The notes under the pieces were generated by a model that saw only the letters and a list, made by a program, of their open reading frames with translations, did no database searches and had not been told where the DNA came from. DNA of 64,000 nt from NCBI GenBank assembly GCA_951406725.2, contig OX597814.1, positions 158,906,001-158,970,000 of the forward strand, in the 5' to 3' direction. The stretch comes from Octopus vulgaris (taxonomy: Eukaryota). Position 1 is the first letter of the stretch, and every line of letters starts with the position of its first letter. The position numbers and the translations under genes were made by a program. Below, in pieces: positions 30,029 through 64,000 of this stretch.

Positions 30029-30065
30029 CTAAGGGAAAAACGAGTAACAATTACTAAACATCACA

Positions 30066-30116
<51 letters not shown>

Positions 30117-33241: not shown

Positions 33242-33424
33242 CTGCAGGGTATAAATAAATTTGAGTCACTATCACATGTACACATAAGAAATAATCAATC
33301 TAGCAAATTAACATGTTCCATTCTCAACAAGAATTACAGAAATCACCTCTCTGATTAGTAACTATCACAAATGTAAATTATTTCCTAAACAAAAGATTTA
33401 TTTCTAATATACAAACAAGCATAC

Positions 33425-34669: not shown

Positions 34670-34920
34670 CTTCCACAGATATTGTGGCTGATGTAGACAC
34701 ATCACCTGCCACACAAAAATATTTTACTGTATCTTTCAAAGTAACATTTTCAATAATCAATTGACAACAATTTTCAAGTGACTGTCACTTTGAATATCTT
34801 TGCCATTCTTTTTCCAAGTGACTTTTGTGTTTTGCTTTGACAATTCACATAATAAAACAACTATTTCTTTTTCTTTCACTCGCATATTTGTTAATTTCTT
34901 TGTGAATTCAGGTTTTAATT
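34670..34920 (-). pseudogene. Young Ig pseudo-exon
   Basis: 251 nt (16-nt frameshifting deletion), acceptor AG>TG, donor GT>AT. Confidence 0.92.
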
Positions 34921-35663: not shown

Positions 35664-35693
35664 CAGTGTCAGGCTCTCCTACAGCAGGGATTT
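35664..35693 (-). CDS. 30-nt linker microexon EIPAVGEPDT, flanked on both sides by dead Ig exons
   Basis: ccctgcag|...|gtgagt, identical to the copy at 24836-24865. Confidence 0.83.
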
Positions 35694-35905
35694 CTGCAGG
35701 GTATAAATAGATTTGAGTCATTTTTACATGTACAATATAGAATTCGTCAATCTAGCACAACTTACAAGATTTTTCTCCTTAATTTCTTACACATATTATC
35801 GATATATTGCTGGAAATATAAGTTGTAAATGCTGATAAGTCGCATGACAAAAAGATTCAACATATTTCCTCGGAGTGAACTACCTACTTTTAATATACAA
35901 ACAAG

Positions 35906-36146
35906 TGTCGCTGATGTTGAAACATCACCAACCACACAAGAAAATTCTCATTGCAAGGTAACAGTTTGAATAATCAGTTGGTGAACCTTCATATCGGCTA
36001 CAAACTACAAGTGACTCTCGGGATTTCTTTGCCATTCTTTTCCCATGTAACTTTTATACTTTCCTTTTGCAATATACATAGAAAAGTATTTTCTTTCTCT
36101 TTCACTTTAATATTTGTTAATGTCTTTGTAATTTCAGGCTTTATTT
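35906..36146 (-). pseudogene. Ig pseudo-exon
   Basis: Donor deleted (caagtgt joined to cgctgatg), acceptor AG>GG, several small deletions. Confidence 0.9.
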
Positions 36147-37135
36147 CCAAAGGAAAATAAGTAACAATTACCAAGATTCACGTGGTCAAAAGAGTGAAAG
36201 AGAGAAAGTGAGTGAGTAGGGAAGAGAAAGAGAGAGAAGGCGAAACAACGTAGTGGAAATAAAAATGATATAGAATCGATTTCGAAACAAATTACACGAG
36301 CGTGTAGACATCTGTAATGCAACACACTATACAACGATAATCAAGCATCAAATATCTTACAAAACTGGAAACTTAAACACATTCTACTGTAAACTCGATG
36401 CAGGATGGTATTTGTTGTAAAGAGGTATACACAGTTACGGGAAGCTTTAATATTTAGGAAATAGCAACGCAACTACGTCTTCATTTAGCAACACATCCAT
36501 GTCCTCATTTAGAATAGGATTTAGAAGAGATTTAAACAATATATTGCAGTAAAGTTAACAACTGAAGATTTCGATATTACATTGAATACACCTATACTCA
36601 TATATTTTGATGTTACCTGAAAGAAAATCTAACGGCATCACGAAACTGAATTGTAATATTTAAATACCTATCATAGTTTAAATATCAAAATGAAAGTAAA
36701 ATGTTTGTTTCATCAATATGTATACGCGCCAATTCTTGATAGCCTGGTAAATGGTTTTTTTTATCGTTAATTTTAAATATATAAATAGAAATCCAGTACA
36801 GTATTAATTTAGAAACAATGTCATTGCCACATGGAAACAACACCATACTAAAGAATCTAGACATACAACTTTTCGGCATTCAGCAATGACACATACACCA
36901 GTGTCCGGCTCGCCTACAACCGTGATTCTGCATAATATTAATAAAAAATCACTCATCTTCATATGCATGAATAATGTAAAAAGTTTGAAGCTAGCACTGT
37001 TTACAAGTTTCTCTCAAACTTTTCGTCTCTATATTACCGACATATTACGAGTAAATAAAAACTAATAATAGATATGACAAGTATTTAAAAAAGATAGCCC
37101 TTCAAGGGTTATTTCTACTATACAAACAAGAATAC

Positions 37136-37405
37136 CTTTTACAGACAATGTAGCTGATGCGGAAACATTACCTGCCACACAAGAGTATTTTCCTATATCT
37201 TGCAGAGTGACATTTTCTATATCAGTTGGTAAACTTTTATATCGGCCACAAACTTCAAGTGACTATCACTTTAGATTGTTTTTGTTTTTTGCTATTTTTC
37301 CCCATGAAACTCTTGTTCTTTCCTTCGATAATTCACACTACAAAACCTTTTGCTTTCCTTTCACTTTTATATTAATTAGTTTCTTAGTAAATTCAGGTTT
37401 TATTT
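37136..37405 (-). pseudogene. Ig pseudo-exon
   Basis: Acceptor AG>CG, donor GT retained, internal indels disrupt the frame. Confidence 0.88.
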
Positions 37406-37440
37406 CGAAGAAAAAACGAGCAACAATTTCCAAATATCAT

Positions 37441-37484
<44 letters not shown>

Positions 37485-38397
37485 GATGAAATAAACATTT
37501 TTCTTTTAGCAGTTTGATATACAAAAAAAAACATACGATGATCTCGGAATATAAAGTATATATTCGCAATTAGGTCTATAATCACACAAACCTATTCCAA
37601 CCACACCACACTATACAATGAGGTTCACACAGCAATAATATATAATGTGCATTATAATCTATGTTATCTGAGTCGGAAAATTCTAAACTGCTACTTCGAT
37701 GCAGGATTCTATGTGGTGTAAGATAGTTACACAATTGATTTCATATTTCATGGAATAATAATACACGGATGTTTTCATATATAAGATAATTTAGTACAGA
37801 TTCTATAATGTACATCGCCGTATATTTAAACCGTAAACGAAAATAGAAAAATTTAAGATGAACTACAGTACATACATACATATATTGTTCATTGTAGTCT
37901 GAAGAAAATCAAATAATGGCTCCAACTCAGCAAATTTTAAATTTTGAAACCAAATGCAACAAAATGTGAGTGTTTCTACAATGTGTACAACATTTACTCG
38001 TAGGCTGACAAAGCTCTGTTTCTTATCAATGAAAGCATACCACTAATGAAAGCCCAGGCTATACCTTGTTGACAAACAATATTGTTGTCACATGGAAGTA
38101 AAATCAAAAAACTGTTGATAAATAAATATCGACATCAGATACATATTCTGGGCATGAGATAATGATACACACACAGGCTTCGGGCCCTATTACGGCTTGT
38201 TATTCTGCAGGATATAAACAACCACTATTCTTGTTGTTAATTAATAATGTACATATTATGAAAGTACTGCAATATGAAATTCCATAAGACATTTCTTCAT
38301 TAGATCACAAACTGAATAATTAGTAGCAGTTAGTAAGATACGTGACAATTCAAAACATTACTCAGAAAAGATCTATTTCTAATTACAAACAGCATAC

Positions 38398-38664
38398 CTT
38401 CCACAGATATTGTGGCTGATGTAGACACATCGCCTGCCACACAAGAATATTCTCCTATATCTTCCAAAGTAACATTTTCAATTATCAATTGGTGAACCTT
38501 CATATCGGCAACAATCTTCAAGTGATTATCACTCTGAATTTCTTTGCCATTCTTTTTCCAAATGGTTTTTATATTTTCCTTTGACAATTCACATATTAAA
38601 ACAGCCTTTTCTTTTTCTTTCATTTTAATATTTGTTAATTTCTTTGTGAATTCAGGTTTGATTT
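38398..38664 (-). CDS. Ig I-set array exon
   Basis: 267 nt, cttag| and |gtatgc, open frame. Confidence 0.92.
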
Positions 38665-39431
38665 CTAAGAAAAAATACAAGCAAGTTTTTACCAAACATA
38701 ACATGAGACGAAACAGTATAACATAACAAAATACATACATAAAGGAATTTCCAAAGAATATAGAATTTACAAATGACAATAATGTTTACAAGTAAAATAC
38801 AACATGTAAATTATACATTAATATTACTGATACAACACACTAAACAACGGAATTATCTTCTAAACAACAAATTATCTTCTAAATTCCTATTAAAATTTAT
38901 AACTATCTTGAGAATTTAAAAAAAATATTCTACTGTAAACTCACTGAAAGATCCTACTAGATGCTAAATATCTGCATACTTACAATCGCATTATGTAGAA
39001 AATATTATCATAAACTTTCGTATTGCACATAATTTAAAAGAGATTTTGATTAGTATGTTATAGTACAATAAAATTAATCCACAGAAAACTAATGTATTCT
39101 AGATAAGCAGATGAATATAGTGTTCAATGTAATATGAAAATACCCTTGTATTGGTTCGAAATAGGCATTTAACGTTGAATTACCTGATAATAAATAATCA
39201 ATTTAAAAGTATATCAATGATAATGTTTATTTAATGTGCTCGCCAATTTACTTGCAATTAACTAACAAGAGCGATAAAGCAGTGTAGCATATCACAAACA
39301 GAAGAATTGTTATTTATATTTGAGACTCAATACTGTTGTTACGTTGAAGCCAAAGCAAACAATTTTGTTCGAGTAACAAAGCAACGACGCCAGATGTATT
39401 GATTGGCTCCAATGAGAAATAAGACACTCAC

Positions 39432-39461
39432 CAGTGTCAGGCTCTATTACAGCAGGTAGTT
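39432..39461 (-). CDS. 30-nt linker microexon ELPAVIEPDT
   Basis: tcctgcag|...|gtgagt, 30 nt, phase 1-1. Confidence 0.85.
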
Positions 39462-39687
39462 CTGCAGGATAGAAATATAAATAAAATTGCTTCATAATGA
39501 AAAAGAATATTGAATAAAGTACAAATAGCAAATTTACCACACTTTACAGATTTACCTTAAGCATTTCTTTTCTAGATTAACTAAATTTTCGCAGTATTTT
39601 TACAATCATTAGTAGATATACACAACAAGCAATTCAAAACATTTCTTTGCAATGAACTAGCTTCTACTAATATACAAACAAGCGTAC

Positions 39688-39954
39688 CTTCCACAGATAT
39701 TGTGGCTAATGTAGACACATCACCTGTTGCACAGGAATATTCTCCTATATCTTGCAAAGTAACATTTTCTATAATCATTTGGTGAACTTTCATATCGGCA
39801 ACAATCTTCAAGTGATCATCACTTTGAATTTCTTTGCCATTCTTTTTCCATGTGACTTTAATGTTTTCCTTTGACAATTCACATACTAAAACAGCCTTTT
39901 CTTTTTCTTTCAATTTAATATTTGTTAGTTTCTTTGTAAATTCAGGTTTGATTT
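39688..39954 (-). CDS. Ig I-set array exon
   Basis: 267 nt, cttag| and |gtacgc, open frame. Confidence 0.92.
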
Positions 39955-40654
39955 CTAAGAAAAAACAAACAGATTTTACTAAACATAACATGAGACAAAA
40001 CAGCATAACATATCCAAATTACAAACAAGGAATTTCCAAAGCATATAAAAATTACAAACGATACGATAAAGCTTACAGCTGAAATAATTGATATTACACA
40101 TACAACACACGAAACAACTAATATACTTCATAACACTTACAGTAAGAAGTTTTGAAAATATTGTACCGTAAACTGATTGCAAAATCTTACTAGATGTTTA
40201 GTGATATATGCATACGCACGCTCGCATTAATATTAAAGAAATATTATAATCTGATCAGATAGAATACCACTTAGCAGATTACCTAGCGTATATTGTCACA
40301 CAAATAAATATATGTAAAGAAAAATAGGCACATAAATATTGCTCAATGTAATCTGGAAATACACTTATACAGGTTCGAAATAGGCAATTAATGTTGAATT
40401 GTCTTATGATATATATATATTGAATTTAAAAGTATATAAATGATAATGCTTATTCAATGTGTACACCGATTAATTTAGGATAGGCTAACACACACACCAT
40501 TGCAGTGTGGCTTATCACAGTTCGAAGGACTGTACATTATAGTAGAGAAACAATACTGTAGCTTCATTGAAGCCAAAACAGACAAATTTGTACGAAGAAC
40601 AACGTAACGACACTAGACATACATATTGGCTCCATTGAGAAATAAGACACTCAC

Positions 40655-40684
40655 CAGTGTCAGGTTCTATAACAGCAGGCAGTT
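40655..40684 (-). CDS. 30-nt linker microexon ELPAVIEPDT
   Basis: ccctgcag|...|gtgagt, 30 nt, phase 1-1. Confidence 0.85.
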
Positions 40685-40901
40685 CTGCAGGGTGAAAGTA
40701 AAAATTAAATCACTACGTAATAGTAAAAAAAGCATCCAATCATACAGAAATTGTAAATATAGCGTAACTTACAGGAATATTTTAGCATTTATATTCCTCA
40801 TTAAAATATATTGTGGCCAATTTTCATAAAAATGCGCAATAAGAACTTCAAAATATTTCCTTGCAACAAACTAACTACTAGTAATATACAAACAAGTGTA
40901 C

Positions 40902-41057
40902 CTTCCACAGATATTGTGGCTGACGNNNNNNNNNNNNNNNNNNNNNNNNNNNNNNNNNNNNNNNNNNNNNNNNNNNNNNNNNNNNNNNNNNNNNNNNNNN
41001 NNNNNNNNNNNNNNNNNNNNNNNNNTGTTAGTTTCTTTGTAAATTCAGATTTTATTT
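40902..41057 (-). CDS. Ig I-set array exon interrupted by an assembly gap
   Basis: Intact acceptor (EIKSEFTKKLT) and donor (SATISVE|gtacac) on either side of 100 N. Confidence 0.7.
40926..41025. other. Assembly gap (100 N placeholder)
   Basis: Run of exactly 100 n. Confidence 0.99.
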
Positions 41058-41556
41058 CTAAGAAAAAAAAACAAGCAGGTCTTACGAAACATAACATGAG
41101 ACAAAACAGTATGAAATAACAACCAAAATACATACAAAGAATTTCCAAAGCATATAATAACTGCAAACGATATGATAAGGCTTACAGTTGAAATACATTA
41201 ATATTGCAGATACAACACACGAAGCACAAAACTCAAGCAGAAATCACCTCCTAAATTTCTTATATATTTCGTAACACCTAAACTGAGAATTTTAAGCTCG
41301 AAATAAGCTTGTAATGAATTGTCTTATGATTTATATTGAATTTAAAAGTAAATCAATGATAATGTTTATTCAATGTGTACATCGATTAATTCACGACAGC
41401 AATGCAGTGTGTCTTATCACAGTTCGAAGGACAGTACATTATAGTAGAAAAACAATACGGTTGCCACATTGAAGCCAAAGCCAGCAATTTCGTTCGAATC
41501 GCAATGTAACGACACTAGACATACATATTGGCTCCATTGAGAAATAAGACACTCAC

Positions 41557-41586
41557 CAGTGTCAGGCTCTATAACAGCAGGCAGTT
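41557..41586 (-). CDS. 30-nt linker microexon ELPAVIEPDT
   Basis: ccctgcag|...|gtgagt, 30 nt, phase 1-1. Confidence 0.85.
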
Positions 41587-41801
41587 CTGCAGGGTAAAAG
41601 TAAAAATTAAATCACTACGTAATAGTAAAATATTTAGTCATTCAGAAATTGCAAACTTTTCATAACTTACAAGGTTTACTTTAAGTATTTATATTCCACA
41701 TTAAAAGATATTGTGGACAATTTTCATAAAAATGCGCAATAAGAAATTCAAAATATTTCCTTGCAACAAACTAACTACTACTAATATACAAACAAGTGTA
41801 C

Positions 41802-42068
41802 CTTCCACAGATATTGTGGCTGATGTAGACACATCACCTGCCACACAAGAATATTCTCCTACATCTTGCAATGTAACATCTTCAATAATCAGTTGATGAA
41901 CCTTCATATCGGCAACAATTTTCAAGTGATTATCACTCTGAATTTCTTTGCCATTCTTTTTCCAAATGACTTTTGTGTTTTCCTTTGACAATTCACATAT
42001 TAAAACAGCCTTTTCTTTCTCTTTCATTTTAATATTTGTTAATTTCTTTGTGAATTCAGGCTTTATTT
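41802..42068 (-). CDS. Ig I-set array exon
   Basis: 267 nt, catag| and |gtacac, open frame. Confidence 0.92.
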
Positions 42069-42449
42069 CTATGGGAAAACAAGCAGGTTTTACCAAACAT
42101 CATCAGACAAAAGAGAGCAACTTAAGAAACAAAATTGATACAAGGGATTTCCAAAGAAAATAGTATTTACAAATGAAATGATAAGGTTTGCAAGTGAAAT
42201 AAATCAATCCTATGAATAAAACACACTAAGCAACGAAATTGAAGGAGAAATTATCATCTAAATTTCTAATATAACTCATAAATTTAGAAGCTTTGAAAAT
42301 ATTCTACTGTAAACTCTTTGTAAGTGTTCCCTAGATGCCAAGTGATATATGCTCACATCTACGCTCGCATTAATATTTAGAAAATATTATCACAATCTCT
42401 TCATGTAGAGTATCATTCAGAAGAGCATCTGCATAGTATATTTTCCCTG

Positions 42450-42594
42450 AATTAAATGTATGTAAAGAAAACGAAAGTATTCAAGAGAAATATTGTCGTA
42501 CAGTTAAATTAATGTGAAGATAACTAATCTGTTCGAGATAAATGTTGTCGAACAGTTAAATTTACGTAAAGAAATCTAAAGTTTTCGAGATAAA
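42450..42594 (+). repeat. Degenerate ~52-bp minisatellite, about 2.7 copies
   Basis: gagaaatattgtcgtacagttaaatt at 42485 recurs as gataaatgttgtcgaacagttaaatt at 42537. Confidence 0.7.
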
Positions 42595-42901
42595 CACATA
42601 AACACATTGCTCAATCTAATCTGAAAATACCCTTATATAGGTAAGTAATGTTGAATTGGTTTTTAATAAATATTGAATTTAGAATTAAAACAATAATGTG
42701 TATTCGAAGTGTGTCCTGATTTACTCCAGATTGGCTAATAAGTACGTGAAACCAGCCTGGCTTTTCACAATTGGAAGTACTGTACGTTTATAGTTGAGAA
42801 AATCTGTTGCCACACTGAAGGCAAAGAAAACAATCTTGTTCGAATAACAATGTAACGACGCCAGACATACATATTGGCTACATTAGAAATGAGACATTCA
42901 C

Positions 42902-42931
42902 CAGTGTCAGGCTCTATTACAGCAGGCAGTT
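42902..42931 (-). pseudogene. Linker microexon copy (ELPAVIEPDT) with dead acceptor
   Basis: Body intact, donor gtgaat, but ccctgcag is changed to ccctgaaa. Confidence 0.7.
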
Positions 42932-43144
42932 TTTCAGGGTAAAAATAAAAATTGAATCAATTCGTAATAGTAATAAAGATGTAAACATACAGAAATTGCA
43001 AACCTTCCATAACTTACATGATTACCTTAAGTACTTCTGTTCCACATTAAATAACTTTGTGGACAATTTTCACTAAAATGCACAAGAGATTCAAAATATA
43101 TCTTTGCAATGAACTAACTACTACTAATATACAAACAAGCGTAC

Positions 43145-43411
43145 CTTCCACAGATAATGTGGCTGATGTAGACACATCACCTGCTACACAAGAATATTCT
43201 CCTATATCTTCCAAAGTAACATTTTCAATAATCAATTGGTGAACCTTCTTATCGGCAACAATCTTCAAGTGATTATCACTTTTGATTTCTTTGCCATTCT
43301 TTTTCCAAATGACTTTAATGTTTTCCTTCAACAATTCACATATTAAAACAACCTTTTCTTTTTCTTTCACTTTAATATTTGTTAATTTCTTTGTAAATTC
43401 AGGTTTGATTT
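43145..43411 (-). CDS. Ig I-set array exon
   Basis: 267 nt, ttcctaag| (AAG acceptor) and |gtacgc, open frame. Confidence 0.88.
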
Positions 43412-44087
43412 CTTAGGAAAAAATACGGGCTTTTGTTACCAAACGTCACATTGAAAGGAAAGGGTAGCACAACATGCACAGAACATACAAATAATGTTAA
43501 ATATAAAATTAGCTACACAGGTTACAATTATGTTTGCCACTCAAATTGATTTTCGAACAACATCACCGTAAACAACAATATTCTCGCAAGCAATATCTTT
43601 TAAACTTATATCATAATCTATTTTGTAAAAATGAAACCTATCCAGTTTTGATTTGAGGCAGGATACTATAAATTGCAAATCGATGTATTGACAACTACGT
43701 TTACATACCGAATACACTTTAGAAGTGATCTGCACAGTATATTGCAGTGAAGTTAACATGTTCTAGACTGAAATGAAGTCTTTGAATTGATCGAAAATTT
43801 GTACAATAATATATTGTTCAATGGAATAATAAGTTTTAATAAATGCTACAAACGTTGCAAATTTCGAAATCGAAATTGAAATAATATTGTTAGTATGTTT
43901 ACTATTTCAGAGACTAATATTTGTATTAAAACAACGTTCCTTATCAGTGAAAGAAAATCACAGATCGTGATGCAGTTATTCATAATTGCCATATTATATT
44001 GTTCCCGCAATGACAGCAAGAGAAGCGGATTTGTTTAGATAGAATAACGACACCAGATATAAACGTTGGCATGAAGAAGGATTACAC

Positions 44088-44117
44088 CAATGTCAAGCTC
44101 ATCTATAGTAGGAGGTT
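44088..44117 (-). other. Diverged linker microexon copy (EPPTIDELDI), status uncertain
   Basis: 30 nt and open, but weak sites cagaag| and |gtgtaa. Confidence 0.3.
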
Positions 44118-44334
44118 CTTCTGGGTATAAATAATTTTAGCCACTTCTACATCATAATTATTATAGAAAGTGTCAATCTATTATAATTTACTGTTTCACT
44201 TCAAGTATTTTTTTCCATTCATAACGGTAATATCGATGGTAAGTATATTTATGGATTGTAACAGTTACTAACGTACATGCAAAGAAATTCAAAATATTGT
44301 CCAGCAAAGATCTATTTCTAATGCACAGTTACCC

Positions 44335-44462
44335 TGTTCTACTTTGCCTTTCATCCTTTCGTGATCGATAAAATAAATATCAGTTGAGCCCTGGGTGATC
44401 GATGTAATCGACTTACACCCGCCACCCGAAATTACTGATCCTGTGCCAAAATTTGAAACCAA
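44335..44462 (+). mobile_element. 5'-truncated SINE of the same superfamily
   Basis: actttgcctttcatcctttcgtgatcgataaaata...gatgtaatcgact, reverse complement of the core of 3881-4099. Confidence 0.7.
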
Positions 44463-44477
44463 TATACAAACTGGTGC

Positions 44478-44739
44478 ATCCTATTCAGGTAAGGTGCACG
44501 CAGCCTCTTCCACACAAATATATTTACCCATATCTTCCAAATGTAGCACTTTCAGTAATCACTTAATAAACTTTCATATCGGTAATGATCTTTATGTGAA
44601 TATTACTTTTAATTTTACTGACATTCTTTATTCGCGAAACTTTCATGTTTTCCTTTGTCAATTTATGTAGTTAAACAGGTATCTTTTTTCTCTTTTACAT
44701 GAATATTTTTTCATGTCGTTTTAAATTCAAGTTTTATTT
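44478..44739 (-). pseudogene. Old Ig pseudo-exon
   Basis: Homologous blocks (ccatatcttccaa, ctttcatatcgg, tttcatgttttcctttg, aaattcaagttttattt); acceptor AG>AA; donor lost. Confidence 0.82.
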
Positions 44740-44777
44740 TTAAGCAAACCCCAGCTAGTTTTACTAAGCACTGAAGT

Positions 44778-44808
<31 letters not shown>

Positions 44809-45444
44809 AGAAAGAGTGAGTGAGAGAGAAAGAGAGAGAAAGAAAGAGTGAGAGAGAGAGAGAAAGAAAGAGTGAGTGAGAGAGAGGGAGAGCAACTTAA
44901 TATCCAAAGTGAATACAAGGGATGTTAAATCATAAAGTTGTTACACATGTTACAATTAGGTTTGCAACTGAAAATAAAAATATTAGATACAATACACAAA
45001 CACCTCAATAGTCAAGCAGCAATTATATATTTTTGTTATTATTTATACTATACGCATAGGAAACTTTTAAACGGCTGAGTGCTATCTCATATAGCTCTCT
45101 CAACGTTGTAAAAGTATATAGGCATAGCTTTAATATTTAAGAAATGCAAACATATAGATGTTTACATAAAGAATATCCTGAAGCAGAGATTCGGCATCGT
45201 ATATAGTATTTAATTTCCTATCTTAGTGTAAATATTGAAATTAAGAGTAAAGCTAACATTTTGATCAAAACATTGTGAGTTCCTTAACGAAACAAACATA
45301 TCAGAAATGGAAGCGCAGTATATTCATAGTTAGCAATCAGCATTGTAGTTACTTTGAAAACACGAGGAAGTGAATTTGTGAGGATAAACTTTATAACGAT
45401 ACCCGACGTGCACTACTGGCACTATTGAGAAAAGACACACTCAC

Positions 45445-45474
45445 CAATGTCAAGTTCTTGTATGGCAGACAGTA
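45445..45474 (-). other. Diverged linker microexon copy (VLSAIQELDI), status uncertain
   Basis: atgtag|30 nt|gtgagt, open frame but both prolines lost. Confidence 0.35.
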
Positions 45475-45508
45475 CTACATTTACATATTTATTACAAATA
45501 TTTTAAAA

Positions 45509-45846
45509 ACCTCTGGCTAAGCGAAGGCGGGGGTATTGTTTTTAGTCGTGTTTGCTTGTTTGTTTGTCTGTGGACAAGATATCTCAAGAATCGCTGAATG
45601 AATTCGGATGAAACTTTCAGGGATGTTTGACCTCATGACTGGCACAAACTTATTAGTTTGGGGGACTGACCCGAAATGGGACAAGAATTCTGGATTTTTT
45701 CCTGATCTTAATTTTTGAGAGCGGTCGAGTTCATTTTTAGTATTCTCGTTTGAGAGGGCAGTCGAGTTTATTTCAGATTTTCTCATTTTAAAAATCATCT
45801 CTGGCTAATCGTCGAGAGGGCGTTGGTGTTACCTTGGCGGAGGTTT
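45509..45846 (+). mobile_element. HINE/DINE-1-like (Helentron-associated) element
   Basis: 5' acctctggctaagcgaaggcggggg, (GTTT/GTCT)n tract, gatgaaacttt core, 3' ccttggcggaggt subterminal inverted repeat. Confidence 0.65.
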
Positions 45847-46539
45847 GATACACAAAGAATATACAAAGGATTTCCAAGCATATAGTTTTTATAAATGTAA
45901 CAATTAGATTTACAAATTAAGCATATGAATATTAGACATAGAACACACTATCCAACATTATTCAAACAAAACTTTTCATCTATATTTGTATCAATATCTA
46001 TGTTGCCTGTGTCAGAAATTCCGGTATTCCGGTATTCATACTATGCAGGGCACTATAAACAGTAAATTATGTAGGTATGGTCAAGCACAGCTTTAAAACA
46101 TAGATGATTTCATATAAAATATCATTTTGAAGAGGATTTGTGCAGTATACTGCCACACAGTTAACATTTTTTATAAACAGGTGTGGAGTATTAGACATGA
46201 ACAGAAATGCATACATGAATATACTATTCATCGTAATCAGAGGAAAACATAATAGCCTCTGACTGCTATGTAATATTTAATTGCCTAACATATTTTAAAT
46301 ATGGAAATCAAAAGTAATGTTGTTTCTTCACTCTGTATACCGAATTACACTTATAGGCTAACATTTGTAACAAATCAGTATTTCTTTTTTGAAGTGTCCC
46401 AAAAATTGAAGCCCAGTGCATTCATAATACACAAACAATTTTATGATCACATCAAAGCAAAAGCAAACGAATTTGTATGGACAATAACATAACCGTAGCA
46501 GACGTAGACATTTGCGCCATTAAGAAATGACACACTCAC

Positions 46540-46569
46540 CAGTGTCAGGCTCTTCTACAGTAGGTGCTT
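46540..46569 (-). CDS. 30-nt linker microexon EAPTVEEPDT
   Basis: ccctgcag|...|gtgagt, 30 nt, phase 1-1. Confidence 0.85.
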
Positions 46570-46762
46570 CTGCAGGGTAAAAATAAATATGAATCACTAT
46601 CACAACATATTATAGAAAATGTCAAAATAGCATAATTTACAGGTATTTCTTCCCTACATCAGGGTTGTTCCGCTAGAAACTATCATTATGATTAGTGATT
46701 TAGTAACGTGCAAGACAAAATGTTCCAAGTACAAACTAGTTATAACGTACAAACGGACATAC

Positions 46763-47029
46763 CTTCCACAGATATTGTGGCTGATGTAGACACATCACCT
46801 GTCACACAAGAATATTCTCCTACATCTTGCAAAGTAACATTTTCAATTATCAATTGGTGAACCTTCATATCGGCAACAATCTTCAAGTGATTATCACTCT
46901 GAATTTCTTTGCCATTCTGTTTCCAAATGACTTTTGTGTTTTCCTTTGACAATTCACATATTAAAACAGCTTTTTCTTTCTCTTTCATTTTAATATTTGT
47001 TAATTTCCTTGTAAATTCAGCTTTTGTTT
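46763..47029 (-). CDS. Ig I-set array exon (ETKAEFTRKL...)
   Basis: 267 nt, attag| and |gtatgt, open frame. Confidence 0.92.
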
Positions 47030-47280
47030 CTAATAAAAAACGAGTTACAGTTACGAAACATCACATGGACAGAGAAGAGAAAGCAACATGACATACGAAG
47101 AACATGCAATAGATTTTGAAGCATAGTTACACGGGTCAGAATTAAGTTTCACATGAAACACGTAAATATTAAAGCTGCAACATACAATTCAGCGAGATAT
47201 ACGGTGAATGCTTATACACTTTAAGCTTATAAACATTATTATTATTTACAAATTATACATTATACAGTACAATATATATA

Positions 47281-48552
47281 CAGGTTGTTCTAAAATTAAG
47301 GTAACCAACTTTTTCAATTTTACCAAAACAAAATATTGTTATATTTCGGGTCCGAAAGTAACAATGCAATGGTAACGGATACACAATTATGATATTATCC
47401 AATTTATTCTATATGACCATCTCTGTTTAGAAACACAGCCTTAAGTCTAGGTGAGAATGCTTCACACGCGACACGCACTAGGCCGTGCGGAATTGAAGCC
47501 CATTCCTGGCGCAGTTTTGTCATCAGAGCATCGAGTGAAGCATGATGAGTGCTCGAAACAAAACAGACAAAATGGACAAAACAGAAAAATCCAACGGGTT
47601 GAGATCGGGGCTTCTTGAGAGCCATACATCCTTGCCTATAAACGACGGAATATCTTTCTGTGTTGTGTCTGTTTGGAGCTGTGGGATGGTGCCAAGTCTT
47701 ATTGGCGGCTCAAAGGTGCATCTTGAAAGTGCTCATTCGCCCATGGAAGCAGTTAAGCTTCCAGAATATCGCTAATGTATCCGCTGGGTGTTAATTTTAA
47801 TACCCGAGGGCACAAAACGAAGAGAGACCTTCCAGTGGCTGTCACAGCCGCCCAAACTATAACTGACTGGATTTTGACGTCGATTTACGAGTCAACACTC
47901 GACGGAGCCAGATACACTCCAGACTTGGCCATTCTGATGGTTTACTGCCAATTCGATGTCAAATTTCTTTTCATCAGTGAACACCAGGTTGGGCAACGCG
48001 CCTTCAACAATCTGGCATAGGATAAGACGACTCTCCAGTCTCATGGCCTTATAAATTTTCGTGAGCTCATGACGATGGATCATCATGTAGGAGTGGATCT
48101 TGAGATCCTCCTTCATTACTTGATACATCTATATTTGGTTTATTTTTGCTGTAGCAGCCAGTTTTCTGACGGAACGACGAGGATCTCCCTGTATCTTTTC
48201 TCTGGTACTTTTGATAAGCTAAGGGATCCGCACACATCTTTTTCGGTCACATTTAGGTCGATCAGCGATGGAACCAGTCTTCTGAAATTTCTTGGCAATT
48301 TTCCAGACTTTTGTTCGTTTAATTTTAAGCTTTTTTGTTATAGCTATATTACTTTCGCCCCCTTTGTGAAGAGCTGTGATTGTATTTTGGTTTATAGCCA
48401 TTATCTAATTTATAAATCTGAATTTATTTAGTCTGAAACAAAAAGAAGATACACTAAGCTTTTATAATAATGTATGATTTTTATACCCTATCACATTTAC
48501 TGATAGCTATTAAAGCCCGAAACTTCGGTTGCCTTAATTTCGGGACACCCTG
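47281..48552 (-). mobile_element. Near-full-length degenerate Tc1/mariner (maT-like) transposon
   Basis: TA-flanked TIRs caggttgttctaaaattaaggtaacc / ggttgccttaatttcgggacaccctg; fragmented transposase with HTH start (MAINQN...), FTDEKKF, DLAPSH and PDLNPLDF. Confidence 0.9.
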
Positions 48553-49088
48553 TATGTATATATATGATACAATTAGATTTGCAAGACAAACACATTAATA
48601 AAAGAGCGATAGCATACTACAATATAATATTCAAGCAACATATGTCATCTAAAATTTTCGTTAAGTCTATATTATCGGGAGTGCAAAATTACCTGATATT
48701 CTAATGTGAATGCGACGTAAAATGTTGCATAGTTAGGTATAGGTTTAATAAGTGTTGAACTAATTTTATATCCTGTGATACTGCACAAACACTTTGTAAA
48801 CAAGAAATTAAGTATTCGAGGTGAAATATACATATATGAATACTTATCTATCTTATTGTATATATTTATATAAAAATATAACAACGTTAATTCCGATCTT
48901 TTTTTTTTACAAAGGATAAGGTAATATTCCTTATCAGTGCTCGCTTAACAGAAATGGAGACGCATTACATTCATCGTTGCTAAAAAGCAATAGTATCACA
49001 TTAAAGCCAATGCAAACGAATTCGTGTGGGTAATAAAATAACACCACCAGACACAAATATTGGCACCATTAATAAAGGAGACACTCAC

Positions 49089-49118
49089 CAGTATCAGGTT
49101 CTTTGACAACAGGGGCTT
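49089..49118 (-). CDS. 30-nt linker microexon EAPVVKEPDT
   Basis: ccctgcag|...|gtgagt, 30 nt, phase 1-1. Confidence 0.85.
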
Positions 49119-49319
49119 CTGCAGGGTATAAATAAATATGAATCACCTTCAGATTGGTAAATAATATAGGAATTCTCACTCTAGCACAACTTACATGCTT
49201 CTTTGAAGTATGTCATCTCTAGATTATCGTATTATTGCTGGCATATAACTTGATTAGTAACAGTTAGTTTATATTTCCTTGTAAGGAACTAGCTACTTTT
49301 AATATATAAAGAAACGTAC

Positions 49320-49586
49320 CTTCCACAGAAATTGTGGCTGATGTAGACACATCACCTACCACACAAGTATATTCTCCTATATCTTGCAAGGTAACATTTT
49401 CAATAATCAGTTGGTGAACCTTCATATCAGCAACAATCTTTAAGTGATTATCACTCTGGATTTCTTTGCCATTCTTTTTCCATGTGACTTTTGTGGTTTC
49501 CTTTGACAATTCACATTGCAATACCACTTTTTGTTTTTCTGTGACTTTAATGTTTGTTAATTTCTTTGTAAATTCAGGTTTTATTT
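49320..49586 (-). CDS. Ig I-set array exon
   Basis: 267 nt, cttag| and |gtacgt, open frame. Confidence 0.92.
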
Positions 49587-51359
49587 CTAAGGGAAAATGA
49601 GCTAGTGTTACAAAACATGGATACAAGAGAAAACGAAGTGACACAAACAGAGCATACAATTATTTTCGAACATATCAAGTAGTCACATATGATTGAATTT
49701 GACTTACAAGTCTCGCACAACAATAGTAGAGTTACAGTACACTTCAAAACAACATTAAACAATAAATAGACTCGACATTTTATATTTTATATTATCTCTA
49801 CTGGGAATTCCTAAGTTTTTTTTATTGTTACTTGGAAGCAGAATTGTATAAATTGTAAACTGATATATTCTATTTTTCATTATTTTATCGTATACACACG
49901 CACGCAGGCGCGCGTGCACACACACTTATACAAAAATATGTATGTAACACAGACAAATATGTAACATGAAAGAATGGTATAGCAAATACCATACAGCATA
50001 AATTCTTGATTTATTAATATTATCTTCACCTCTAGAGGATGTGTCATATTTATCATATGATAACTGAAGCAAGTTCCATTTGTGAAGGATATAATTTCGA
50101 GAATATCGAGAATTTCTCTCAAGCCAAAGTTGACATGTCATCAAAAAAAAAAGGATTGTTTTCAAGTGATGAAAGGACAGCCTCGGGCACGTGTTCCTGC
50201 CTTAATATGCGTTATCAGTACGACAACTTTTCTAGAAATAAAGTTGTCTTGATAACAATATAACGTCAACTGACATACATTTATGCCATTTGGAAATGAG
50301 AAGCTCATCAGCGTTATGCATTTTTATGCAAGCAGTTCTGTAGGGTATAAAGAAATATGAATCATATATGTGTGTGTGTGCGTGAGCGCGCGTGTGTGTT
50401 GTGGAATAGTAGATCCCGAAGCAATTACAGCTATAAATATTGGACTGAAAAACCCTAAGGTTAGAAAAAGTTGAAGACTGTCCTACAGGCAGCAACATTT
50501 ATGTGTGTGTGCGCGCGCATGTGTATATGTATGTAAGTAGACTATAAAAATTAGGAGGTATGAGAGGTGAATATATTTATTTAATCACTTGACATCTTTA
50601 AGATCACGCCCGTTTCGTAGTCTTCTTCATTTAGTAATAATTTCAGTGTAGAATAAATTGTTTGCATAAATCCTCATGTTACGCACTATACAATACAGTT
50701 GTGTATTCACAAAATGCAAATAAAGAAAGCTAACTTATTTGATCACCAAAACACCATGGTTACGTTACCGATTCAACTGTAACTATACTCAAAAATTTTC
50801 TCTTTATATATACAATGTATAGAAAAGAGAGACTAGATAAAATTAACTTGGTTTGGTCAGTAAAAATAAATACATGTTGTTTCATATCAATAAGTTGCCA
50901 ATCAGAAGTTAAGGGAATTGATCGTTCTTTATTGCTAGTATAAACACGAGAGGGCAAAAAGAGGAAGTAAAGTATTTGAAGTAAATATTTTAAAAAATAA
51001 GAAAATAAAAAATAGCTTAGAATATATGTAAAATACATATGAAATTATAATAAATTAATTAACTGGGGAAAAGACAGCTGGAATAATAAAGATCAGACCA
51101 GGAAATATTATTGAACAACATGATTCAAATGGGGTTAAAAGATCAAAATGTCACACATAAAAACTTATGGACATTAATTTTCTAGACATATCTCAAAATA
51201 CTTTCTAGCTCAATGAGCTGTTGTAAAACCAAGCTGTACACACCCCAACACAAGCACAAGCAGAGACACATGAACAAACTAAAAAATACACAACCCCACG
51301 CGTAATAGTGTACTCTTTTTCACCCATGTATATACATATAGACCACACAGAGAAAAACA

Positions 51360-51670
<311 letters not shown>

Positions 51671-51679
51671 TCACAAGAT

Positions 51680-51910
51680 GACCTGATCGACCAAATTATC
51701 GGATGCTGGTATACATTGTTGGTCACAATGCGCTTTGCATCATTTTAGCTTTCGAATCCCCCTGAGTTACTCATTTACCGCTGAGTGGACTGGACCAATG
51801 TGGATTGGAGCATTTGGATCAAGAAAACAACGCGCGGCCCGGGAATCGAATCTACGATCTAGCAATCGTGAGTGCGACACCTTAACCGTTAGTATATGCC
51901 CCTTCACACA
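51680..51910 (-). mobile_element. Degenerate tRNA-derived SINE
   Basis: Minus strand AACGGTTAAGGTGTCGCACTCACGAT...GATTCGATTCCCGGGC head, followed by a GC-richer body. Confidence 0.55.
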
Positions 51911-51980
51911 TGCAGATATACACCCATACATACTCATTCACCTGTACACCCATTTATACATAAATATATACACAGAAATT

Positions 51981-52056
<76 letters not shown>

Positions 52057-52189
52057 CTAAGAAATTAACTAAAACAGTCTTCAGTATTCCCTCGAAGATT
52101 TTATTCTCTACAGCAATATTTCTACCAAATTAAATCTATGATTAGTATAAGTGATTGGGAAGCAAGTTTATCACCACACAGCCACTCTT

Positions 52190-52305
52190 GTTGCAAAGAA
52201 ATTTTCCATAATCACTCGAGGAACCTCCATTTGTAACTTGTTTCTGTTCATTCACTTTACTGTCTATGAATTTTTTTGTTTGTGTAAATTCAGAATTTTC
52301 TTGTA
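52190..52305 (-). pseudogene. Heavily deleted Ig pseudo-exon remnant
   Basis: ttgcaaag..attttccataatca, ttcacttta, tgtaaattcag, followed by array-type acceptor-side intron (gttacagttagaaaatatcacatgg). Confidence 0.55.
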
Positions 52306-52781
52306 GGGAGAAAGAAGTTACAGTTAGAAAATATCACATGGGCAGTAGGAGGAGAAATAATACATAAAAAGATCATACAGGGAATTATGCACAGAGAAGT
52401 TTGTATAGGTTACAATTAAATTTACACATCACACACACACATATATGTTAGATACAACACACTGCAAAAATATATTTAAACAACGAGTGTCTTCTAAATT
52501 TGTTTGATAAATTGTAGTATAACTAGTAAAATTTGTAAGCATTCTACTGTTTACTCGATGTACCCAGTGAAAGGTGATATACACATAGCAATACATTTAC
52601 ACATTGACACACAAACATAGAACTCGCACACATCCGAGTACACTTGCGTTCACATACATACTCTGTGTGTGTGCGCGTGTGCTAGACATTGTGAAGTAAC
52701 TACAATTTAAGTTTGGCTTCATCAGGGAGATATTTGATTCGGAGTAAGCTGTAGCCTCTTTTCTTCTATCAGTATTCCCTA

Positions 52782-52783
<2 letters not shown>

Positions 52784-52844
<61 letters not shown>

Positions 52845-52910
52845 CATACATACATACATACATACATACATACATACATACATACATACATACATACATA
52901 CATACATACA
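52784..52910. repeat. (TA)n(CATA)n microsatellite
   Basis: Direct reading. Confidence 0.97.
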
Positions 52911-53490
52911 CTGCACACTCACACACTGCTTAAATACCAATCTTGAGAAATTAGGCTTCTCAAAACCAGAAAGGAGAAAGCTAATTCGAAGACTACAGAT
53001 CCAATCCATCACTGGAACTGTAAAAATGTGCAAAACTTTCCATAAGTTTATCATTTAAATATATATGAGCATGTCTAGATATGCAACTAAATGCATGAGT
53101 ATACATGCATAAAACATACAAATTTGCACATACATGCATACGTACATATATACATACATACATACATACATGCATACATACAAAAATATCCTGTTTAAAT
53201 TCCAATGAAGGAGTCTCGGATCGAGGTTGGAGACCGGCTTTTACTCTAATGGCGGGAAATCTTGAAATAAACTGAATAATGACATACATACAGTGTGCAC
53301 TTTTCGTATATAGTATAGATTAGTAATGGTTCTGTATACTATAGTAATTCTTCATTCTCTATTGAACTCTGTAGGGCGATGTCACTGCCAATTTTCTTTA
53401 CGATTAGTAAACATTAGTTTTGTGTTAATCAAAAATTCAAAATATAGTACTACTATTAAGTTGCTACTTTCAATATACAAACAAACGTAC

Positions 53491-53757
53491 CTTCCACAGA
53501 CAATGTGGCTGATGTAGACACATCACCTGCTACACAAGAATATTCTCCTATATCTTCCAAAGTAACATTTTCAATAATTAATTGATGAACTTTCATATCA
53601 GAAGCAAGTTTTATGTGATTATCACTTTTGATTTCTTTGCCATTCTTTTTCCATATGACTGTAATATTTTCTTTTGAAACTTCGCATATCATCGTTGCTT
53701 GTTGCTTTTCTTTAACTTTCATGTCTTTTATTGTTTTTGTAAACTCTACTTTAGCAT
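53491..53757 (-). CDS. Ig I-set exon, first (5'-most) unit of the array (DAKVEFTKTIKDMKVKEKQQATMICEV...)
   Basis: 267 nt, ttgcag| and |gtacgt, open frame. Confidence 0.93.
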
Positions 53758-59508: not shown

Positions 59509-59535
59509 CAATATTACTGATGAGCATTGATATAT
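59509..59535 (-). CDS. 27-nt microexon DISMLISNI
   Basis: atttcag|27 nt|gtatga, phase 1-1, fits the spacing of neighbouring microexons. Confidence 0.5.
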
Positions 59536-59868
59536 CTGAAATTTTAGCATTCAAATTCTGCAAGAAATTGTTTTCACATATCTTCATTAATAAAAATGTC
59601 ATGAAAGAGGGGTGACATTAAGTAGGATGCCGTTCAGCAAGATACTGCTATATATATTTCCTAGTGCATCAAGAATATCGCTAATAAGTTATTAAATGAA
59701 AGAAATTAGAGTCACATGTATTTCACCAATAGAATTTTCAGCGAATTTAGTCTTTCCTGACACAGTAGAATGCAAGAAATTGCACAAGGAGACACGAAGC
59801 CATCAAAGTGAGACTCAGCAACAAGCAGAAGCAAGAAATCATTAGTCAATAAATAATCTTTCACTCAC

Positions 59869-59898
59869 CAAAAGCAGCTTCCACCTCAGAACGAGTTT
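59869..59898 (-). CDS. 30-nt microexon ETRSEVEAAF
   Basis: ttttcgctag|30 nt|gtgagt, phase 1-1. Confidence 0.8.
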
Positions 59899-60186
59899 CT
59901 AGCGAAAAATAAACGTAAATATACGCCCTCATTATTTAGGTCACGTGAAAACAGTAAATATATTGAGGAAGAAGGGACGTACTTTTTTTTTTGTTTCTTA
60001 AATATTACACCGTTATAAACAGTAGATGGACTTTACAAGAATCGAAAATACTCTGAGAGAGAATATGTATACGGTTCAAACTTAGAGAAATGTAATTAGT
60101 ACAATAAAAAAATATCGCAATACGATTAGAAACTTTAATATCTTATATTGATATATAATGCGAGAAACAATTTTGCAGTCGCTTAC

Positions 60187-60216
60187 CTGTACGAGTTATT
60201 TTTTCCGTTACGACCT
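60187..60216 (-). CDS. 30-nt microexon EVVTEKITRT
   Basis: tcctgcag|30 nt|gtaagc, phase 1-1. Confidence 0.8.
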
Positions 60217-62416
60217 CTGCAGGATTAAGGAAATATATAGTTTAATATTTCAAAAAGATAGTTTATAAACACTGTACCATTAAATGGTAACTATATTAGA
60301 ACATTTGTTGAAAAACTCATGGCATTTAATCATTCATTCGTTGTAAAATGATTCGTTGCTAAAATTTCACACACATATATACATATATATGAAGTGTATG
60401 TAAAAACAAACATATATATGTAGTATATCCTGTATGCATCTATGAATATATGCATGGATATATTCATTTAAGCATATGCGTGCGTGTGTATGTTTGCATG
60501 TAATGCAAGTAATTCGTTATATATGTAAATCTTTCTCAACGCAATACTTTCTCAACGAATGGACATTTTCCATTTAGTTGGTGGAGTGAAAAGTAACTAT
60601 TGATGATAGTTTTTAGTGACTCAACAAAAATAAACGATAATTCAATTTCCACAGTCCAAAAAATAATGAACAGTTAATCATAAAATAAGAATTTTCATGC
60701 TTAGATTGAAACCTGATCTTTTTTAGTAACACATTATCATCTACAAACTTGTTTTATTACACCGCGTTGGTATAGTCAAAAATCCAAGCATAAATTTAAA
60801 GTATTCATGTATGTTGTCATGTACAGAATGGCGTACGCCAAAATGGTTGAGAGGCTTGTATTTTGCCATTTAGATACAGAAAGAAAACAAAAATCCATAA
60901 AGTTTTCGAAACGAGGAAAAAATATCACAGTATAAACAATACCTTTTCTACCATTAATTTAAAGATGTCTATATCACTTTCTAATTTAGTTGTATCTTTC
61001 TATTCTATAACCTAAAGATATTTCAAAGACACAGACGAAGACAAAATAGAATAGATAATAAGAAACGAAGACAAATTTCACACCTTCAAGTTAGAAAAGT
61101 AAAAATTCTTCAAACAAAATAGAAAGCATGAAGGGAAAGCGCAAAACAAATAAAAATAGCGTGAGCGTATGTTTGTAAAGTCAGTGTTATTGCTGCTCGA
61201 TAATTCTTTATAGATATGCTATATTTATATTTAGTTGAAAATGTTAAATAAAATTTAAATCATCGCTACATTTGTATTGAAACCATTATTTTCTTTAGTT
61301 TGTATTTTTAGCAATGTGTATCATAGTCATTTTCTGCTGTAACACGAGATTCATTGTTAGTGCATGTGTATATGTTTGTGTGTGTTTAAGTGAGTATACG
61401 CGCATGTGAAATTTTGTATCTGATCGAAAGTAAGAAAGTGATATATACACATATAATACATATAATGCATGTGTGTGTGTATGTCTGAGCCGGTTGTGCT
61501 TTGTTTTGCTTCATCACAAGTGTTTTTCACATATTTTTATGTAATTTAAATATGAAATGAAATTTTTCGCATCAGACTTAGTTTCCTGTGACGCCAAATT
61601 CAGTTTCTTTTACTTTTCAAATGTTCTGGCTAAAAAACTAAATATATATTATACTAATATAATTTTAATTAAATAGTTTCCTTCTAATATATTTATTTTG
61701 CATGTAGATTTATTTCTTTGGGAAGTTCTGGTAATTCTGGTTGAGTAAATGTACTCAGGGAAGCATACTGTGCAGATGAAACATACTTAGATCTATTCAG
61801 TTATATAGGAAAGCTTCATGTCAGTTTGCTCATAAATGCCAAATAAGTAACGGTTAATATGCGCGTTGATTTTTGTTAGTTTGACTTTAGTGATGCCTTT
61901 ATATAGATGTTTTCTTATGCTGTGGAATTGACTAAATTATTTCAATCCTTTCTGCAATGTACGTAGTGATCCAAATTGTGCTTTAAACAATTATTTCAAG
62001 ATTAATACTGTTTTAGACAAATTGCATTTAGATCAATCATATTTTAGATAAAATGTTTTCGACAAACTCGCCGGATACAATAGGAAATCATTACTAGCGA
62101 ATTTGGGATCCAAGTACATAGCAGTGTCAGGCTGTTAAGAGAAACATGCCTGGCATGTAGGGAAAACTACAGCTAAGCCTTTTTGATCTTGACAAGTGTG
62201 AGTATGTATCTTTAAAATTAAATTGCAGTCTTTACAAATGCTTACTTTGATAGGGAAATGTTACAAACTAATTTGAATTTATACTAAAAATACTACAAAA
62301 ATCAGATAGTTTCGTTCTTTGAAAAAAGTGTTATCTACGCAATTATATATTTTTAGCGATTTCTTTGCCGAAGCGAAACACTGGAAGCCATTGAAATGAT
62401 TTTAAATGAAACTCAC

Positions 62417-62446
62417 CAACTGTAGATTCAACTTCAGACGGTTTTT
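62417..62446 (-). CDS. 30-nt microexon EKPSEVESTV
   Basis: tttcgttcag|30 nt|gtgagt, phase 1-1. Confidence 0.82.
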
Positions 62447-62812
62447 CTGAACGAAAGTTAATACGAAGTACAATAAGCAGGTTGTTCGATTATCTCATGC
62501 ACAAAACACTTTTGTTCAAATACTTAGTTATGTAGTTATACGCTTATAAATAGTATATCATTATAAATTTCTTACAATGGTAATGCATCTTCTAATTACT
62601 TTTAATTAGCACATGTTTTACTTTTAATATAGATTGTCTTAAAAATCATTAACTAATTTGAGAATCATTCGAAATAATTATCATTCTCTAAATATGCTAT
62701 AAATTTACAAGAAAACTATCAAAATTATTCTTTAGCATCTACGTTGAAATATTCTTTCCATAAAATGTATTTACATTAGTGAGTTCCATATTTTTATAGC
62801 TAATGTGCTTAC

Positions 62813-62842
62813 CTATGCGAGATTCGGTTTCTCTAACAAATT
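62813..62842 (-). CDS. 30-nt microexon (Q/E)FVRETESRI
   Basis: attttgcag|30 nt|gtaagc, phase 1-1. Confidence 0.8.
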   Translation of the reverse strand, partial: NLLEKPNLA

Positions 62843-63199
62843 CTGCAAAATCAAAATCGTTATTCATTAATGATTACTTTCATCATTTCGTGAAAGAAAA
62901 AAAGCTTAAATAGTTTGAATTCAATTAAATTCATCAGAGAATCTAGATTGGCGTATTTGTCAGTATACTTTCATATCAATTTCTTAAGTATAACTTAATT
63001 TGAAAAATGTCCTAAAGTTCAATATTTAGTATAAGAAGGAATACTATAAATCGTATATATCAATTCATACTAAGGCAAATTACACTTCTAGTACGCATAT
63101 CGATAAAAATAATAATCATTAAGAAATGTTTTACTGACTATAATAATTCTAATAATATAGGTGCTCAATTTTCATTGAATCAATTAAGAAAACACTTAC

Positions 63200-63229
63200 G
63201 AACTGTGGCATCGACCTCAGAAGGTTGTT
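63200..63229 (-). CDS. 30-nt microexon EQPSEVDATV
   Basis: catattcag|30 nt|gtaagt, phase 1-1, paralogous to EKPSEVESTV. Confidence 0.8.
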
Positions 63230-63675
63230 CTGAATATGGAATAAAAGGTGACATCAGATTTTGCACCGTGCACAAATAAAATATAGACGGACAGATGCAT
63301 GAATGCATAAAAAAACTTCTCTACACTTTTAAAATTTAACGGTATGTTGTTCGAAACTATACAATACACTTACGTAAAAGGTATATTCGCAATTTTGAAT
63401 ATGTATTGAAGTTTTATGACATATGTTAGATGCGTTTGAAAAGTAGACCAATAATTGGAGAGCACTTACAAAAATTTATTTCATGCTTGAAACAATCGTG
63501 AATATTTTTTAAGGATTTTTAATAATAATGACAAATCGATAATTTACAGGTATATGGAGATTTACATATTTAAAAATTACTTAAAATTTAGAAGTTTGAA
63601 AACAATTCTAGACGAAATCTATAGTATTGTGACTCAAGCGTATTATAGTAATAACGAAAATAGAAGATCGCTCAC

Positions 63676-63705
63676 CTTTAGGACGTTCGTCCTGTGTCAC
63701 AATAT
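63676..63705 (-). CDS. 30-nt microexon (D)IVTQDERPK
   Basis: atttcacag|30 nt|gtgagc, phase 1-1. Confidence 0.78.
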
Positions 63706-64000
63706 CTGTGAAATTAATTGAATGAAATTGTAATTGATTCTCAAGCATTTGCGGACAAAAAACTAAAAATGATAGTTCTTTTAATATCATACGATGTATT
63801 ATGGAAAATGATTATATTGAGAAACAGTAAAGTATGTTTCAAATATTAGCAGTGGCAAATTTTGTAAACAAACTTTATGATGAATAAAAGTCTGCATATG
63901 ATACATTTTATCATTTTATGTATTATTTGACTAGGACATTCAATGTATAATACTGAAACGCGATAAAGCAATAGCATTTTCACAAAAAGCATTTGCATAT

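Follow-up and report, generated by a model that had tools for sequence, protein, structure and literature searches.

A very large array of spliced microexons in the octopod obscurin/UNC-89 gene, with evidence for block-level isoforms

It is known that, in vertebrate titin, the PEVK segment lies between tandems of Ig domains, and an analogous position is occupied by the element analysed here, i.e., an array of microexons on the minus strand of the Octopus vulgaris genome, whose last part falls in a stretch of 64,000 nucleotides (assembly GCA_951406725.2, contig OX597814.1, positions 158,906,001 to 158,970,000), hereinafter referred to as the window. Other features in common with the titin PEVK region are the many short exons, the low complexity of the encoded segment, the growth by tandem duplication and the alternative splicing (PMC6469411). 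In the obscurin/UNC-89 family, whose domain layout matches that of the gene harboring the array (PMC4865318; bioRxiv 2020.04.03.023374), comparable non-domain, low-complexity inserts are those described in C. elegans UNC-89, namely the interkinase region (bioRxiv 2020.04.03.023374) and the KSP region, the latter being located between Ig blocks (PMC2120741). In Drosophila, the splicing of Sallimus gives long and short giant forms that set the sarcomere geometry by muscle type (PMC12063666), and rows of very short, mostly frame-preserving exons are found in the schistosome MEG genes (bioRxiv 2023.06.21.545858).

The octopod array is real, spliced, conserved and very large; it is located in obscurin and there is evidence for block-level isoforms. 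The original prediction, drawn from the letters of the window, consisted of seven exons (six of 30 nt and one of 27 nt) arranged in two clusters, and all the seven minus-strand candidates bounded by AG and GT, with phase 1-1, were found in place (7/7). Each of the six 30-nt exons is flanked by an acceptor rich in pyrimidines and by a GTRAG donor, and their spacing is the expected one, with introns of 288-446 nt inside the clusters and 2,200 nt between them. In the region comprised between 59 and 64 kb, the pattern yAG-N30-GTRAG occurs seven times on the minus strand (six after filtering for pyrimidine-rich acceptors) and is absent from the plus strand; its mean number over 1,000 dinucleotide shuffles of the same region was 0.127, with a maximum of 2. 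This comparison had been set beforehand, and its outcome speaks for the exons.

The expression of the exons was checked on the assembled contigs of five of the 24 listed runs (X1, X4, X6, X8 and X13), matched at 90% likeness, the RNA status of each run being judged from intron-free GT-AG joints and not from the record label. Within positions 59300-64000 the contig cover sat on the exons, with a few small matches elsewhere, and GT-AG joints cross all five introns, four of them in 4/4 runs and the one between the exons of classes E and F in 2/4; hence, the 30-mers are present in transcripts, and the six exons are borne out together with their order (C-D-E-F-A-B, corresponding to the terminal cassette of the array). 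Exon E (in X6) and exon F (in 4/4 runs) were matched with 0 differences, and neither of them has a paralogue within one mismatch. The exon of the first Ig domain following the array (starting at 53757) continues 5' into exon B in X1, X4 and X6, and the same join is also seen from the side of exon B in X4 and X13. The proposed in-frame passage from the array to the first Ig is thus confirmed, except that it starts directly from exon B, with the phase kept. The coordinates of these features are reported in the table.

Features of the window (all on the minus strand; positions are those of the window).
Feature	Position	Strand	Evidence
30-nt microexon, class C, phase 1-1	63676..63705	-	GT-AG joint to 63229 in 4/4 runs
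30-nt microexon, class D	63200..63229	-	joints on both sides, 4/4 runs
30-nt microexon, class E	62813..62842	-	joints; 0-difference contig piece in X6
30-nt microexon, class F	62417..62446	-	joint to E in 2/4 runs, to A in 4/4
30-nt microexon, class A	60187..60216	-	joints on both sides, 4/4 runs
30-nt microexon, class B, last of the array, splice branch point	59869..59898	-	contig loose ends
27-nt AG/GT candidate, exon status unsupported	59509..59535	-	no cover, bypassed
In-window end of the microexon array	59869..64000	-	array runs 229 kb beyond the window end
First I-set Ig exon after the array	53491..53757	-	Pfam I-set, E 8.8e-17
Downstream tandem Ig block, intact and decayed Ig copies, 30-nt linkers	1977..53757	-	profile matches

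The 27-nt candidate, which had been proposed as the seventh exon, was rejected. No contig cover falls in its bin in 4/4 runs, and it is bypassed by the join of exon B straight to the Ig exon in X1, X4, X6 and X13; moreover, it is not similar to any of the six classes of exons (only 10-12 matches) and no corresponding module exists in the gene model of Argonauta described below. The intron holding it contains five equally weak candidates, versus three on the plus strand. It could still be a rare exon.

The sequence was examined for 400 kb on each side of the window (864 kb in all). As anticipated, the array continues past 64 kb: it spans positions 158,965,869-159,199,059 of the contig (233 kb), with 268 candidate microexons (259 of 30 nt, five of 27 nt and four of 24 nt), about 265 of which can be regarded as exons, since GT donors are present in 265/268; the joined translation is 2,636 aa long and has no stop. 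When the first exon, flanks included, was searched against the genome, 31 more matches appeared, none of them farther than about 200 kb upstream; the 30-nt matches retrieved by a profile scan of 464 kb, 259 in number, were all on the minus strand and all confined to the array. Two strict-pattern matches inside the array (66947 and 289936) were dropped, having a profile score below zero. In a set of 261 exons, the coding frame contains no stops, and the other two frames contain 142 and 322.

The exons fall into six classes arranged in the order A-B-C-D-E-F, which is kept over about 40 cassettes, mostly of six exons and about 4 kb each; one or two exons are often missing from a cassette, and variants with four exons are also present. 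The alternation of two 10-aa modules with a 20-aa period, which had been noticed in the window, is reflected by the autocorrelation of the array translation (0.41 at lag 20); however, the true period is of six exons and 60 aa (0.63 at lag 60). Since classes B, D and F have 19-23/27 nt in common, and classes A, C and E 13-17/27 nt, a unit of two exons, older than the cassette, was probably triplicated to give the six-exon cassette, which then multiplied, i.e., the array probably grew by tandem duplication in two steps. The earlier claim that the array is old holds for the classes, which are common to Argonauta, and for the terminal cassette, whose introns have diverged (in the cassettes adjoining the window the identity is about 70% and extends over one third of the length), and fails for the inner cassettes, which are up to 99.9% identical, introns included. 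This suggests a recent or ongoing expansion. Every exon has phase 1-1, 255/261 finish in G and nearly all start with A, so that almost any join yields Glu or Asp (as it occurs in 253/260 junction codons) and keeps the frame.

Some parts of the array depart from this scheme. The four 24-nt exons (270450, 209339, 172157 and 152951, in continued window coordinates) sit in a rarer unit containing aromatic residues, which recurs four times, each with its own 24-nt exon, and has a match in the Argonauta model; this suggests a higher-order repeat of several cassettes. The non-GT donors belong to three class-A exons (continued coordinates 128567, 124643 and 161713), two of which lie in cassettes that are 99.9% identical to each other, pointing to an inherited mutation or to an assembly error. 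At the 5' end of the array (272604-288716) another repeat of young age is present, which contains a 27-nt exon and whose five copies are up to 95% identical.

The comparison of the distinct variants with the class consensus revealed 89 of the 126 possible synonymous changes, 124/344 non-synonymous ones and 0/16 stops, and a dN/dS of 0.37 was obtained among neighbouring exons of the same class; judging from this pattern of substitutions, the array is under purifying selection. A search with the adjoining Ig returned five proteins among 63 candidates, four of them from Argonauta hians. The Ig of one of these, the incomplete gene model P0001, is 80% identical, and the model starts with 479 residues of array modules leading directly into that Ig; rough parsing gives about 48 modules, 40 of which reach an identity of >=5/10. 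Apart from this model, the repeat searches turned up no relative: the Argonauta repeat matched nothing among proteins of 3,202-5,000 aa or 30-1,004 aa (those of 1,005-3,201 and >5,000 aa being left out) and gave no usable match in the ESM Atlas, so these failed searches do not show absence from squid, cuttlefish or Nautilus. Five weak matches from a search of 50%-representatives (17-26% identity, lacking the module motifs) were rejected as unrelated repeats.

As for the gene harboring the array, 17 Ig matches precede it on the minus strand, and it is followed, on the same strand, by at least 20 intact Ig exons, SH3, RhoGEF, PH, Ig, 16 Fn3, Ig and a kinase, and then by a non-domain exon, Ig, Fn3 and a second kinase; this two-kinase layout is read from the genomic order and not from the placement of the kinases on a tree. 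The SH3-RhoGEF-PH triplet is in order on one strand, 5-21 kb past the window start. The closest PDB match of the SH3 is obscurin 1v1c (E 1e-19; next 4e-6), and RhoGEF and PH were recognized with E values of 1.1e-10 and 1.7e-9, respectively. DAPK/CaMK-type kinases were on top of the kinase PDB search, with no obscurin kinase among the best 60 matches. The combination of Ig tandems, SH3, RhoGEF, PH, Fn3 and two kinases is that of obscurin/UNC-89 and not of titin; titin was consequently rejected, and the host gene, on its domain set, is the octopod obscurin/UNC-89. Squid tentacle fibres have been reported to lack an M band (PMC4757648), and thus a location at the M-line, or in the middle of the thick filament, cannot be assumed.

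Other observations concern the surrounding domains. The locus contains 55 Ig profile matches, some being fragments or decayed copies, and an assembly gap of 100 N (window 40926-41025) falls inside an Ig exon, which makes the Ig copy number uncertain. About ten 30-nt linker exons lie between Ig exons at window 24836-49118, one of which is kept in the Argonauta model; they share length and phase with the array exons, with no sequence kinship detected. The proposed derivation of the Ig linker exon from the same module found no support, and a common origin was rejected, since its similarity to the classes (12/27 nt) does not exceed that of in-frame Ig 27-mers (mean 10.6, maximum 16). The sixteen Fn3 exons, which come after the RhoGEF region and ahead of the first kinase, are spread over 43-216 kb before the window start (L045-L062), and some of the gaps between them span 60-75 kb. 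A weaker second SH3-like exon (L041:6955-7119; SH3_10, E 0.0016, below the cut-off) comes before the obscurin SH3.

The array encodes a segment rich in Glu (24%), Thr (16%) and Val (15%), followed by Ser (9.5%), Arg (7%), Ile (6%), Pro (4.9%) and Lys (4.3%), and nearly devoid of aromatic residues and Leu. With 27% of Glu and Asp, 39% of charged residues, a net charge of -0.16 per residue and a FoldIndex of -0.19, it is likely disordered. With all the exons included, and at a contour length of 0.38 nm per residue, the segment would comprise 2,636 aa, weigh about 299 kDa and measure about 1 micrometre. When the Argonauta segment was modelled by AlphaFold from the single sequence, strands and no helices were obtained, with an uninformative mean pLDDT of 36. 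The segment had been described as PEVK-like, a label that was not confirmed and had to be discarded: Pro and Lys are scarce, and the PEVK+Ala ratio over the array (0.51; 0.48 without Ala) falls below the minimum reported for titin PEVK exons (0.54, with means of 0.79-0.84; PMC6469411), which argues that the segment is not a PEVK, though it is built like one.

The contigs also contain joins that leave out whole blocks. In X8, the first Ig exon after the array continues into 27 letters matching only the end of the last pre-array Ig exon and stopping at the GT donor of the latter, in frame, with a jump of 244,721 nt; in this transcript set, the whole array was seen to be skipped, Ig to Ig, in one contig. 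A loose end at 59869 matched nothing as printed, and two exon starts turned out to be mixed in it: in X1 and X6 (two contigs), it is accounted for by an alphabetical tie-break between the Ig start and an exon located 2,315 nt before the window start, which would be a second partner of exon B. This candidate pre-SH3 exon (50 nt, L041:7636-7685, minus strand) is the sole place in the 864 kb without violation of the X1 string (the next best has five); a pyrimidine tract and an AG precede it, and its frame agrees with that of the SH3-like exon. The decoded string would therefore represent a form with the array but lacking the downstream Ig block, which, on this decoding, would be skipped as a unit in X1 and X6 (62 kb jump). 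Three apparent skips inside the array (60217-62813, 62448-63201 and 59900-62417) are not exon skipping, since a paralogous exon sits between their sides.

On the whole, we favour, as somewhat probable, the idea that the product of the array is an acidic, disordered spacer, which serves as an extensible tether and is switched as a block by long-range splicing, the disorder being predicted and the role of tether putative. The array would form a spacer or an entropic spring linking the SH3-RhoGEF-PH-kinase half to the N-terminal Ig tandem, splicing would switch it in or out as a block, a third form would drop the downstream Ig block while keeping the array, and the choice of forms would be muscle-type-specific. 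The UNC-89 interkinase region, a measured entropic spring, can be cited as a precedent (bioRxiv 2020.04.03.023374). A more ambitious extension, which we put forward tentatively and deem rather doubtful, is that the octopod obscurin is a three-position splice switch, in which spacer and Ig block are each handled as a whole unit, with a titin-like elastic, length-setting role; if true, obscurin would tune filament spacing and passive stiffness across the muscles of muscular hydrostats, and its gene would compete with that of titin for the number of exons.

Several points weigh against the tether. Contigs cannot show one molecule with all the exons. Exons C, D, E, F and A have 6-32 paralogues each within three mismatches (six for C and nine for D; none for B), so that, at 90% likeness, their joints may partly stem from paralogous cassettes. 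The skipping of the whole array comes from one contig of one run, with 27 letters on its short side versus a bridging guideline of 31, that of the Ig block depends on the decoding of a mixed consensus, and single-exon skipping inside the array was not seen. The dN/dS was computed among paralogues, which do not represent an independent sampling. Lastly, Val, Thr and Ile, favouring strands, amount to 37%, and Pro reaches just 4.9%, versus an UNC-89 interkinase spring described as proline-rich (bioRxiv 2020.04.03.023374).

The abundance of Val (15%), Thr (16%) and Ile (6%) might rather suggest a beta-rich rod, or a stack of hairpins, serving as a stiff spacer, in agreement with the strands of the Argonauta model; yet that model is uninformative at its pLDDT, and a segment with almost no aromatic residues or Leu, 39% charged residues and a negative FoldIndex makes such a fold quite improbable. 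The order of the six classes over about 40 cassettes, the purifying selection, the strict 10-residue register and the recurrence of the aromatic unit, present also in Argonauta, could instead be explained by a ligand-binding ruler, in which each 60-aa cassette would be ordered only once bound to a periodic partner, whether the thin or the thick filament, paramyosin or Ca2+. This is unlikely: tandem duplication alone also conserves the order, cassettes are often short of one or two exons or reduced to four, and the partner is putative. It might also be imagined that the array is a nearly neutral by-product of tandem duplication, removed for the most part by splicing and tolerated since every exon keeps the frame, as the existence of whole-array skipping, the near-identity of the inner cassettes and the three candidates out of 268 without a GT donor would suggest. 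The lack of stops in 265 exons, the dN/dS of 0.37, the inclusion of the array in four runs and its maintenance in Argonauta render this very improbable, and the block-switched disordered tether is retained as the preferred explanation.

The literature search found no description of the array, most subscription papers and supplements being outside its reach, and the combination of "obscurin" and "cephalopod" retrieved only papers on other subjects. In the accessible part of PMC12198301 Octopus appears only in tree legends, and molluscs and octopus are unmentioned in that of PMC12812942; the octopod protein may appear in the domain schemes that supplement PMC12198301 and PMC12063666. Coleoid muscles are thought to tune their speed through ultrastructure and not through myosin isoforms, and squid thick filaments measure 7.4 micrometres in the arm and 0.81 in the tentacle (PMC4757648); titin has 0 occurrences in this review of coleoid muscle. 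A giant scaffold with a block-switched spacer and Ig block, known for octopods only, is a candidate for such ultrastructural tuning. It also represents an extreme case of splicing, with about 265 consecutive exons of 24-30 nt that are joined or jumped in a single 245-kb step, and arrays of such tiny exons are easily missed by gene predictors.

The comparison with the known systems can be summarized as follows. The octopod gene shares with obscurin/UNC-89 the tandem Ig, SH3-RhoGEF-PH, Ig, Fn3 and kinase-interkinase-Ig-Fn3-kinase layout, as well as the presence of one Ig per exon and of many splice forms (PMC12812942). It differs in the N-terminal Ig tandem, which hosts a 2,600-aa repeat of about 265 microexons, in the 16 Fn3 matches before the first kinase, versus two Fn3 in UNC-89-B, and in the Ig tandem preceding the SH3, whereas the SH3-DH-PH of UNC-89 is near the N-terminus (PMC4865318); human OBSCN has 119 exons (PMC12812942), versus a partial tally of about 350 for the octopod gene. 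The UNC-89 interkinase spring is proline-rich, about 650 aa long and differently located, and the octopod gene has its own interkinase exon besides. Titin PEVK has 113 exons in human, with a mean length of 76-93 nt across mammals (PMC6469411), versus about 265 of 24-30 nt in the octopod array, which lies in a different gene and encodes little Pro and Lys and 25% of Ser and Thr. Sallimus is an I-band titin and not an obscurin. Finally, the schistosome MEG genes have 10-20 exons and encode secreted, variable proteins (bioRxiv 2023.06.21.545858), whereas the octopod array is more than ten times longer in exons, is organized in ordered cassettes under purifying selection, and forms an internal part of a multi-domain intracellular muscle protein.

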